Shown: piece after piece, positions 4,056-53,852 of the stretch | How positions within the stretch are numbered: position 1 is the first letter of the stretch | How the letters are laid out: the number at the start of each line of letters is the position of its first letter | Source of the DNA: Candidatus Cloacimonadales bacterium | Lineage (GTDB): Bacteria > Cloacimonadota > Cloacimonadia > Cloacimonadales > JAIOQZ01 | Assembly: GCA_963662655.2 (NCBI GenBank) | Contig: CAXXTU010000002.1 | Location: 512,001-576,000 of the forward strand | Reading direction: 5' to 3' | Length of the DNA stretch: 64,000 bases | Made by a program: the position numbers and the translations under genes | The notes under the pieces: model-generated | What the model was told of the DNA's origin: nothing | What the model saw: the letters and a program-made list of their open reading frames with translations, nothing else | Database searches by the model: none

Positions 4056-4166
4056 CCCGCGGCGGCGGCGTTGAAGCCTATCGGCTTCTGCACGACGGCA
4101 AGAAGTTTTCCCGGAAAACTTCTTGCCGCGTGCTAGTGCGCGGAGCGCACACGCCGCCGCCGCGGG
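4056..4166. repeat. structured intergenic element, four-way junction, copy 1
   Basis: 16-bp perfect closing stem CCCGCGGCGGCGGCGT/ACGCCGCCGCCGCGGG enclosing three hairpins (6 bp, ~20 bp, 6 bp); same architecture as 52890-53002. Confidence 0.8.
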
Positions 4167-52454: not shown

Positions 52455-52766
52455 TTATTTCATGGTTTTCATCAGTTTCTGGAGCGTCAACATGAGCTCG
52501 TCGACAACCTCCAGCTTCCCTTCCTGAATCTGCTCGATCACGCAGCTCCTCATGTGCGCTTCCAGCAGCTTGGTTGCAACGGCGGTGAGTCCCGACTGGA
52601 TCGCGGAAATTTGCACCAGAATGTCGTCGCAGTAAACGTCCTCATCGACCATGCGGTTGATTCCGCGGATCTGACCCTCGATCCGGTTCAAACGATTCCT
52701 CAATCCCTTTTTGAATTCCTCCGGATGGTGCGCCATTCGACTGTGTACAGGGCAAGTCTTGCTCAT
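52455..52766 (-). CDS. csoR: copper-sensing repressor CsoR
   Basis: RLNRIEGQIRGI, YCDDIL, HMRSC (Cys-His-Cys); ATG 52766 with AAGGAG RBS; upstream extension in the ORF track is spurious. Confidence 0.93.
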   Translation of the reverse strand: MSKTCPVHSRMAHHPEEFKKGLRNRLNRIEGQIRGINRMVDEDVYCDDILVQISAIQSGLTAVATKLLEAHMRSCVIEQIQEGKLEVVDELMLTLQKLMKTMK

Positions 52767-52785: not shown

Positions 52786-52802
52786 ATACCCCTGGGGGGT
52801 AT
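52786..52802. promoter_or_regulatory. CsoR operator
   Basis: ATACCCCTGGGGGGTAT pseudo-palindrome with C/G tracts just upstream of the csoR RBS, matching known CsoR boxes. Confidence 0.85.
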
Positions 52803-52889
52803 ATGGATAAGGTAGTATGTTTCTTGCGATGGGCAAATGGTTTTCTCGCTTTTTTCCGCGTTGGACTGGCGGCGGGTGCCAGCGCACCC

Positions 52890-53002
52890 GCGCGGGGCGG
52901 CGTAGGAAGACCGTTCGGACTTCCTGATACGGAAAAGGTCTGCTACCAGGCGGTAGCAGACCTTTTCCGTATCGTTTGCACAGCAAACACGCCGCCCCGC
53001 GC
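52890..53002. repeat. structured intergenic element, four-way junction, copy 2
   Basis: 14-bp closing stem GCGCGGGGCGGCGT/ACGCCGCCCCGCGC enclosing a 6+2 bp hairpin, a perfect 22-bp hairpin and a 6-bp hairpin; flanking hairpins 52872-52891 and 53004-53036. Confidence 0.8.
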
Positions 53003-53084
53003 TGAGTCGGGCAGACATCTCAAGGATGTCCGACTCGTCCAGAAGGTGGGGAAGGTGAATGTCAAAGCTGAAAGAGATTAGCTA

Positions 53085-53852
53085 TTAATCCTCGCTGGCT
53101 CCCAGAGCGAATCCGCATGCCTTGAGTTGCTCGAGGATTTCGTTGATATCGCCGTGCCATAGACCGTACTTTCGAGAGATGTGCTCGGTCCAGCTGTAGT
53201 TTTCGAACGTGAACGTCTCTTCCATTCCTTCTTCCAGCTTGACCATGTAATTGGCCTTGCGATAGTAGTCTTGAGCGAGATAACCATCGTCCATGACCTG
53301 CATTGCCTTATCGATCATTTCGTCGGTCAGCTCCGAGTATTTATCCTCGAAAACGGTGAACTCGATAGGGAAACGTGGACGAGTCGGAGGATTCTCCGCC
53401 GGATATCCAACGGTTAGCCCCACGAGCGGGAAGACGCGATCGGGAAGTTTGTAAGCCTCTTTGATTCTTTCGGCGATGGAGGGAATCCAGCCGTGATAGC
53501 AGCTTCCCATGCCGAAGCTTTCCGCTGCGATTACCATGTTCTCCGCCGCGTAGGCAGCGTCCTGGATGCCTAAAAGCATGAAGGAAATATCGTTGGAGCG
53601 CATTTTCCACCCGCGTTTCTCCATGATTTTCTCCATCTTGTACGAATCCACGCAGAAAATGAAGAACAAAGGAGCGCTGAAGGGATTTTTCTTGCGGTCG
53701 CGCTTCATGAGAATGCTGTAGGTCTGCCCCGCGAATGGCGCGCTGACGGAAGCCTTCAGGAGAGAATCGAGGATGTCTTGCTCGATCGCCTGATCTGTAT
53801 ATTTGCGTATGGATTTGCGATGGATCATAATATCGATTATCTTCGTATCCAT
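53085..53852 (-). CDS. nitroreductase family protein (NfsA-like)
   Basis: HRKSIRKY, AAESFGMGSC, PLVGLTVGYP, RPRFP. Confidence 0.9.
   Translation of the reverse strand: MDTKIIDIMIHRKSIRKYTDQAIEQDILDSLLKASVSAPFAGQTYSILMKRDRKKNPFSAPLFFIFCVDSYKMEKIMEKRGWKMRSNDISFMLLGIQDAAYAAENMVIAAESFGMGSCYHGWIPSIAERIKEAYKLPDRVFPLVGLTVGYPAENPPTRPRFPIEFTVFEDKYSELTDEMIDKAMQVMDDGYLAQDYYRKANYMVKLEEGMEETFTFENYSWTEHISRKYGLWHGDINEILEQLKACGFALGASED

Follow-up and report, generated by a model that had tools for sequence, protein, structure and literature searches.

The window, a stretch of 64,000 nucleotides from a Candidatus Cloacimonadales genome (G000), contains a palindromic sequence in the spacer between a csoR-type gene and a nitroreductase-family gene. 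The locus raises the questions of what this sequence is, whether it acts as DNA or as RNA, and how it came to lie between these two genes. In the sequence-only reading, it was described as the second of two copies of a four-way-junction element. All four of the stems proposed for this copy (copy 2) were recovered at the proposed positions (Table 1); P1 (14 bp) and P3 (22 bp, arms 52926-52947 and 52952-52973) are 100% paired. The four-way junction folds on both strands, as had been proposed, with z scores of −14.3 and −13.1 for RNA and −13.0 for DNA, far beyond shuffled sequences (0 of 200). That description also included outer hairpins and a TGGAC/GTCCA closure. These are present in copy 2 but are not a property of the family, because no excess complementarity beyond P1 was detected across the copies.

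The csoR-type gene precedes a heavy-metal P-type ATPase gene. A 187-aa open reading frame through copy 2 extends the csoR frame upstream; the matches in congeners are confined to the 103-aa protein with which they were searched. A TAC-C/G-rich-GTA palindrome upstream of csoR (52786-52802) is kept in two congeners (G001 and G003), and we take it to be a candidate CsoR operator. Elsewhere in the window, three tRNA genes are located at positions 40-294.

Table 1. Repeat copies and neighboring genes in the window. The plus strand of the repeat is the strand on which the GNA loop is found in most family members.
Feature	Position	Strand	Remarks
Repeat copy 1, short type	4056..4166	+	GGA loop in P4; with respect to the core, the flank types are swapped
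Repeat copy 2, short type, P1-closed unit	52890..53002	+ (P1-P2-P3-P4 strand)	113 bp
P1 left arm, copy 2	52890..52903	+	GC-rich; inner GGCGGCG conserved; outer edge ragged across copies
P1 right arm, copy 2	52989..53002	+	
P2 arm, short form, copy 2	52904..52925	+	
P3 hairpin, copy 2	52926..52973	+	22 bp, perfect; sequence-variable across copies
P4 hairpin, copy 2	52974..52988	+	6 bp, 3-nt loop ACA (GNA in most other copies)
Flank motif, P4 side of copy 2	53003..53032	+	One-sided, weakly conserved, ~10 bits
csoR-type metal-sensing repressor gene	52455..52766	-	Left neighbor, outside element; PF02583
Nitroreductase-family gene	53085..53852	-	Right neighbor, outside element

In copy 1, the long arm has a 16-bp perfect core, which becomes ~21 bp when extended beyond a bulge. 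The pattern GGCGGCGT-N70-100-ACGCCGCC matched the window exactly twice and was absent from 100 shuffled versions. The sequence-only reading had allowed that these two matches might stand alone and that shuffled sequences might fold alike. Instead, the whole genome (3.81 Mb in 2 contigs, 98.95% complete) was found to contain 76 full intergenic copies, 72 identified by a first rule and 4 by a relaxed rule, together with 2 truncated ends; the family statistics given here rest on the 72 first-rule copies. A tight four-way junction was predicted on at least one strand for 64 of the 72. Among the controls, this was the case for none of 216 shuffled sequences and for 4 of the 770 spacers that lack a copy; of these four, two proved to be missed copies and one is a tRNA cluster.

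The inspected copies are all intergenic. Their neighbors look like ordinary genes in 72 of 72 cases, apart from ISL3 insertions beside three copies, as judged by eye with a Pfam scan of only a few. The co-directional setting of the two window copies had been regarded as a shared context; it is not a rule, since 39 copies lie between co-directional, 17 between convergent, and 16 between divergent genes (background 858, 248, and 319). No replichore bias was observed (35:34).

The conserved junction consists of the P1 core, P4, and the base of P2, and the arm interiors are free in sequence yet paired. P1 combines an invariant inner core with a ragged outer edge. P2 is bimodal, being 16-32 nt long in 33 copies and a 64-97 nt interrupted hairpin with a conserved base in the other 39; we regard the short form as a likely product of symmetric deletion from the long one. 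The P3 stem has a median length of 19 bp (range 7-25). It is perfect in 50 of the 72 copies and shows 31 mismatches among 1261 pairs, under a parser that chooses the best register and thereby favors pairing, and the median identity of the P3 arm between copies is 0.40. When 23 short copies were aligned, pairing was 99% in P1 and 100% in P4. The corresponding value for P3 was 69% because the register differs between subgroups.

In this alignment, P1 and P4 contain 22 both-sided changes and no one-sided change. The proposal of a structure-conserved family with changes on both sides of the stems is upheld, and no one-sided change of the G-U type occurs in P1 or P4. However, the both-sided changes may come from copying one arm off the other instead of pairwise selection, and sequence alone cannot separate the two.

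A flank motif (~10 bits) was detected with a trained matrix on the P4 side of 52 of the 72 copies. It is not common to sister copies beyond background and is therefore likely a target preference or a decayed tail; in the sister copies #37 and #38 it lies on opposite sides. Solo flank motifs are not enriched between genes (40 of 448 distant matches are non-coding, at a non-coding share of 11%).

The long P3 arm had been suspected to be a cargo or specificity segment, and this idea did not hold. The longest exact match of a P3 arm outside the copies was 12-14 nt in 58 of 61 cases and 16 nt in one, with none in two, while shuffled sequences reach 15 nt. Phage and plasmid searches gave no meaningful match to the repeat or its arms. 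In contrast to these chance-length matches, 32 of the 72 arms have an 8-mer in common with the arm of another copy (7.4 expected), so the arms are derived from one another.

Sister copies at unrelated sites are 90% (#6 and #25), 87% (#2 and a copy in the congener G002), and 84% (#37 and #38) identical, and the likeness stops at P1. Therefore, the unit has moved. A further pair, #49 and #52, is part of a longer duplication. An apparent excess of target duplications at k=4-6 was traced to GCGC within the imperfect ends of P1, which leaves no target duplication. Nor was an empty site found at the nucleotide level, so that the repeat boundaries are inferred. Contigs from two sequencing runs of low depth, from one sample, contained no excised, inverted, or empty form.

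The P4 loops bear on whether the repeat acts as DNA or RNA. They are triloops in 68 of the 72 copies, and 57 of the 68 read GNA on one strand or the other. The GNA loops are concentrated on the P1-P2-P3-P4 strand (52 of 68), with 5 on the opposite strand (p ~1e-40 against 8/64). Copy 1 retains a GNA loop (GGA), and copy 2 has lost it (ACA). According to one study, among the 64 triloops only GNA gives a very stable GC-GNA-GC mini-hairpin in DNA, the RNA counterpart is much weaker, and such mini-hairpins occur at N4 promoters, at ssiA, and at the origins of ssDNA phages (PMC13037366). No family in Rfam 15 reaches its gathering score on the element. The strict Watson-Crick stems and the GNA triloops are signs that point to a role at the DNA level, as had been suggested in the sequence-only reading and as the lack of one-sided G-U-type changes in P1 and P4 and the Rfam result also support.

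The distribution of the repeat is patchy. Among 232 genomes of the phylum, G000 gave 55 pattern matches, three congeners gave one each, and the 228 others gave none; a looser pattern yielded background only. The spacer before queD is occupied by a copy in G001 and G003 but is copy-free in G000, and the orthologous copies of G001 and G003 have changed both arms together in place. Outside the phylum, the architecture was multicopy in at least five gut Clostridia MAGs and single in a sixth among the genome-collection matches listed; of these 98 loci, 61 have the full architecture by inspection, including one duplicate stretch, and 37 are chance matches. Within one Clostridia family, 2 of 121 genomes matched, with 28 matches in one of them (G233). 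A metagenome scan gave six loci, all of the Clostridia type, and searches of viral contigs gave 0, 0, and 44 matches, none of the 44 having both the hairpin and the closing arm.

The Clostridia copies have the same arm order and P1 core as the G000 family and a similar P4. The search pattern fixed only P1 and P4; therefore, the long perfect P3 and short P2, found unasked, suggest a common origin without proving it. Their P4 loops are mostly AAA, TTT, or AGG, with GNA in 15 of 69 on the opposite strand. Hence, the mini-hairpin is not a general feature, and homology between the two phyla is not proven. Recurring neighbors at 46 Clostridia loci were only open reading frames through the repeats, paralogs, or orthologous sites. 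In one Clostridia MAG (G232; L052 and L079), copies are found among tandem runs of other hairpin repeats, in a BIME-like manner.

To our knowledge, bacterial palindromic repeats with a known mobilizer use RAYT or DDE transposases. Y1 transposases (PF01797) were detected neither in G000 nor in any of five Clostridia carriers, which are MAGs and may be incomplete, with positive controls. A tblastn search with congener Y1 proteins gave a best E value of 0.009, inside a Bmp lipoprotein gene, and the RAYT-like and IS200-like Y1 genes of the congeners carry other, unrelated repeats. G000 has no IS110 (PF02371), Rep_trans (PF02486), or PF03432 relaxase match. Searches for PF04986 (IS91 Y2) and PF01446 (Rep_1) gave no match, and their controls were equally silent. 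Against the integron integrase model TIGR02249, five of six scanned tyrosine recombinases (PF00589) of G000 fell far below the cut-off, four of the five being scanned as catalytic-domain pieces only, and the sixth is XerD-like.

Several specific candidates were also rejected. The xerC gene beside copy #42 is an incidental neighbor. A retron msr-msd origin was dismissed because the sole reverse transcriptase (PF00078) best matches Drt3b/Drt4 below the cut-off and lies ~10 kb from the nearest copy. A small GIY-YIG (PF01541) gene flanked by the repeat was not found, and an ssn-like gene is flanked by a different repeat. Derivation as a MITE of a resident DDE element was rejected, because the repeat has no tips in common with two elements that we take, from a reading of their proteins, to be ISL3-type and IS3-type, and no target duplication.

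The copies are associated with changes in gene order. In four stretches of G000 with ten copies, the blocks flanking a copy mostly map apart in the congeners, although copy-free spacers break too. Within the 2.4 of 3.89 Mb of G001 that could be compared (62% of this one congener), and among pairs with both orthologs present therein, 2 of 19 copy-flanking gene pairs are still adjacent, compared with 203 of 290 pairs around copy-free spacers of 100-400 bp (p 3e-7) and a matched expectation of 12.7 of 19. The two pairs that remain adjacent are separated by long spacers, in which a small open reading frame lies between the scored genes. For convergent and divergent pairs together, adjacency is kept at 0 of 9 copies and 73 of 111 other spacers. 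A stricter control, by stem length in the spacer, weakens this contrast: adjacency is kept in 248 of 317 pairs for stems below 9 bp, 34 of 66 for 9-11 bp, 12 of 31 for 12 bp or more, 5 of 7 for SRM-bearing spacers, and 1 of 18 for copies. The difference between copies and stem-bearing spacers has p 0.0006 for stems of 9 bp or more and p 0.017 for 12 bp or more. Hence, the breakpoint excess is smaller against strong-stem spacers, and the link between copies and breaks is suggestive.

Copies mark 47 of 280 broken G001 adjacencies, in an 80-entry set that includes two false candidates from a duplicated region. In only 2 of these 47 cases is the gene that used to be the partner marked by a copy as well, which is no excess. 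A simple reciprocal exchange among surviving copies was rejected as a general rule. Most breaks have no direction because G000 is an outgroup to G001-G003. One break can be polarized to the G000 lineage: an adjacency present in G001, G002, G003, and the outgroup G006 is broken up in G000, where copy #64 occupies the junction.

Copy 2 itself lies at a place where the gene neighborhood differs between genomes. In G001 and G003, csoR follows a large secreted-protein gene and is not adjoined by the nitroreductase-family gene. In G000, both of the gene ends that adjoin in these congeners carry copies, copy 2 and its counterpart at C2 675 kb, and lie 110 kb apart. Short-read contigs, from runs that may be the genome's own source, bridge copy 2 and three other copies, so that these junctions are not assembly errors.

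Three orthologous sites were usable in Christensenella MAGs, whose junctions at repeats could be assembly errors. At one site in two MAGs with ~95% identical flanks, the arrangement a-copy-b in one corresponds to a-copy-1.45 kb-copy-b in the other. At another, the left flank is kept and the neighbor changes at the P1 edge, and the third is unchanged except for symmetric arm changes. Several near-identical strain pairs retain both flanks of a copy. The pair L071/L090 was dropped as an N-gap artifact, and L115/L178 was rejected as a junction switch because the difference lies ~65 bp outside the copy.

We think it probable, if by no means assured, that the repeat is a non-autonomous element, that it is processed in its folded single-stranded form by an enzyme that has been lost, acts in trans, or belongs outside the tested families, and that its copies raise the chance of rearrangement. 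While the DNA is single-stranded, the repeat would fold on one strand (the GNA strand), and the resulting four-way junction would be recognized by a putative nuclease or recombinase. This enzyme, whether since lost or acting in trans, would excise and insert the P1-closed unit. Arm symmetry could be restored when one arm serves as the template for its partner, and short copies would arise as symmetric deletions of the long P2. New gene junctions may result from palindrome breakage or from exchange through the shared ends, and the copies would likely act as rearrangement hot spots.

An unlikely alternative is that the copies serve, much as attC does in principle, as sites for structure-specific recombination, at which a putative recombinase shuffles, inserts, or excises whole transcription units. 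The position of copies at synteny breaks, the 1.45-kb segment between two copies and the neighbor switch at the P1 edge in Christensenella, and the location of copy 2 and the C2 675 kb copy at two gene ends that are neighbors in G001 and G003 would fit such sites, and a conserved junction with variable arms resembles, by analogy, attC recognition. However, no integron integrase was found in G000, the copies are dispersed with no array, and former partner ends are not enriched for copies. Moreover, the neighbors are not unusually lineage-specific (69 of 144 have an ortholog in the compared sequence, versus 1317 of 2718), nearby copy pairs have no bias toward direct orientation, near-identical strains keep both flanks, and MAG junctions at repeats can be artifacts, as in the L090 pair. 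We are equally doubtful of the broader proposal of a cross-phylum class of ssDNA sites that form a four-way junction and are recognized, as attC is, by their structure, and at which a putative recombinase or nuclease would both multiply the site and reshuffle, insert, and excise transcription units.

It is about as improbable that no dedicated enzyme is involved and that host processes maintain and spread the palindromes, namely template switching by which arms become perfect, hairpin breakage, repair, and gene conversion between copies, with the palindromes marking rearrangement junctions as scars. Such processes would be compatible with the absence of a detected transposase in six carriers, the lack of target duplication, the ragged outer ends, the link to breakpoints, and the in-place changes of both arms in orthologous copies (L062/L063; G001/G003). 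They do not account for why the arms have a fixed order and fixed sizes, why the junction bases are invariant, why GNA loops are selected on one of the strands, why repeats in two phyla have the same layout, or how new spacers receive insertions.

Least likely of all, an RNA role (a structured small RNA, mRNA-end stabilizer, or attenuator) would suit the very stable predicted RNA fold, the intergenic position nearer to 3' ends (median 75 bp) than to 5' ends (130 bp), the orientation bias at co-directional sites (27:12, p 0.024), and the reported transcription of bcr1 (PMC3184786). It is opposed by the lack of G-U covariation in P1 and P4 and by loops that fit DNA GNA; moreover, the orientation bias makes the GNA strand the template, and 16 of the copies are flanked by divergent genes. 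In addition, P1 is not followed by a U-tract, the element received no terminator call and matches no Rfam family, and it is absent from most relatives.

Several known families are close to the repeat. REPINs are likewise dispersed intergenic palindromes of ~100-190 bp with inverted conserved ends, a patchy distribution, and proposed ssDNA handling, and their spacers are kept for length and pairing, with both-sided changes (PMC3116915, PMC3733652); the first of these states that pairing is kept rather than sequence (PMC3116915). However, a REPIN is one long hairpin, whereas in the G000 repeat a tight four-way junction bears three hairpins inside, its ends are not separate REP hairpins, no GTAG/CGTC tag occurs in its conserved ends or flank consensus, and its six carriers have no detected Y1 transposase while the congener RAYTs accompany unrelated repeats.

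As reviewed in PMC3184786, bcr1 of the Bacillus cereus group is ~155 bp long, has a cruciform-like fold kept by compensatory change, and occurs at non-conserved positions, with no mobilizer named in that account; all of this is reminiscent of the G000 repeat. By description, bcr1 differs in having direct repeats of 5 bp on its flanks and two stem-loops in its interior, compared with three hairpins and no target duplication here (PMC3184786). MITEs are similar in being small, non-coding, and multicopy with terminal inverted repeats (PMC3184786), but the G000 repeat has ragged outer ends, no target duplication, and no ends common to the ISL3-type or IS3-type elements. The SRM/NTS repeats of the Ssn GIY-YIG nucleases are comparable, being ssDNA hairpins with strand specificity that number in the tens to hundreds and affect recombination; SRMs are single hairpins of 20-50 nt flanking ssn (PMC11893778). 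The ssn-like genes of G000 and its congeners are flanked by a repeat different from the one described here.

Integron attC sites are read as a folded single strand, conserve structure over sequence, and bound recombining units. The G000 repeat differs from them in lacking an IntI, an array, and the RYYYAAC...GTTRRRY layout. An attC site is a bulged hairpin, whereas the repeat is a four-way junction with housekeeping neighbors, and no one-orientation cassette array of accessory genes was found at the copies in G000. A literature search, with poor coverage of subscription journals and with supplements outside its range, returned no description of the family. We conclude that the repeat is an undescribed REPIN/bcr1-like family and a new structural variant of REP/MITE-like repeats, set apart from bcr1 by description. 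Also new here is the suggestive link between copies and gene-order change.

The presence of ~76 copies in a near-complete genome with no detectable RAYT or DDE partner, the cross-phylum layout, and the clear ssDNA signature point to an unrecognized ssDNA-processing enzyme or host-driven spread. If the breakpoint link is true, the family provides a testable handle on gene-order shuffling, and a structure-reading recombinase, if there is one, would be a useful tool; if the link is false, this is an undescribed repeat family of moderate interest.

Other mobile or repeated sequences were observed in these genomes. In G003 (L036) and G001 (L037), an IS200-like Y1 gene accompanied by palindromic repeats of its own lies between xerC and dinB; G002 lacks it at that site. 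The single reverse transcriptase gene of G000 (L028, C2 981 kb) is split by a stop codon and is nearest to the Drt3b/Drt4 defense reverse transcriptases. The ISL3-type element is located at C2 365544-366891 and 12 other sites (13 matches, one partial); it inserts in A/T tracts, with 8-bp duplications at several sites, and three insertions lie no more than a few hundred bases away from a copy of the repeat. The IS3-type element has 8 full copies in G000. Related multi-kb blocks with 85-99% identity (C1 11-25 kb; C2 1-10 kb, 476-509 kb, 2.73-2.76 Mb, and 3.29-3.32 Mb) are probably prophage- or ICE-like copies. A broken ssn-like GIY-YIG gene (L173, C2 885122-885292) is flanked by a second hairpin repeat family with 71 motif matches in G000, and an intact version of the gene with the same repeats is present in G001 (L160). 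Finally, a 94-aa GIY-YIG open reading frame occurs in two copies in G003 (L165 and L167), inside apparent 23S rRNA sequence, where it may be part of an intervening sequence.
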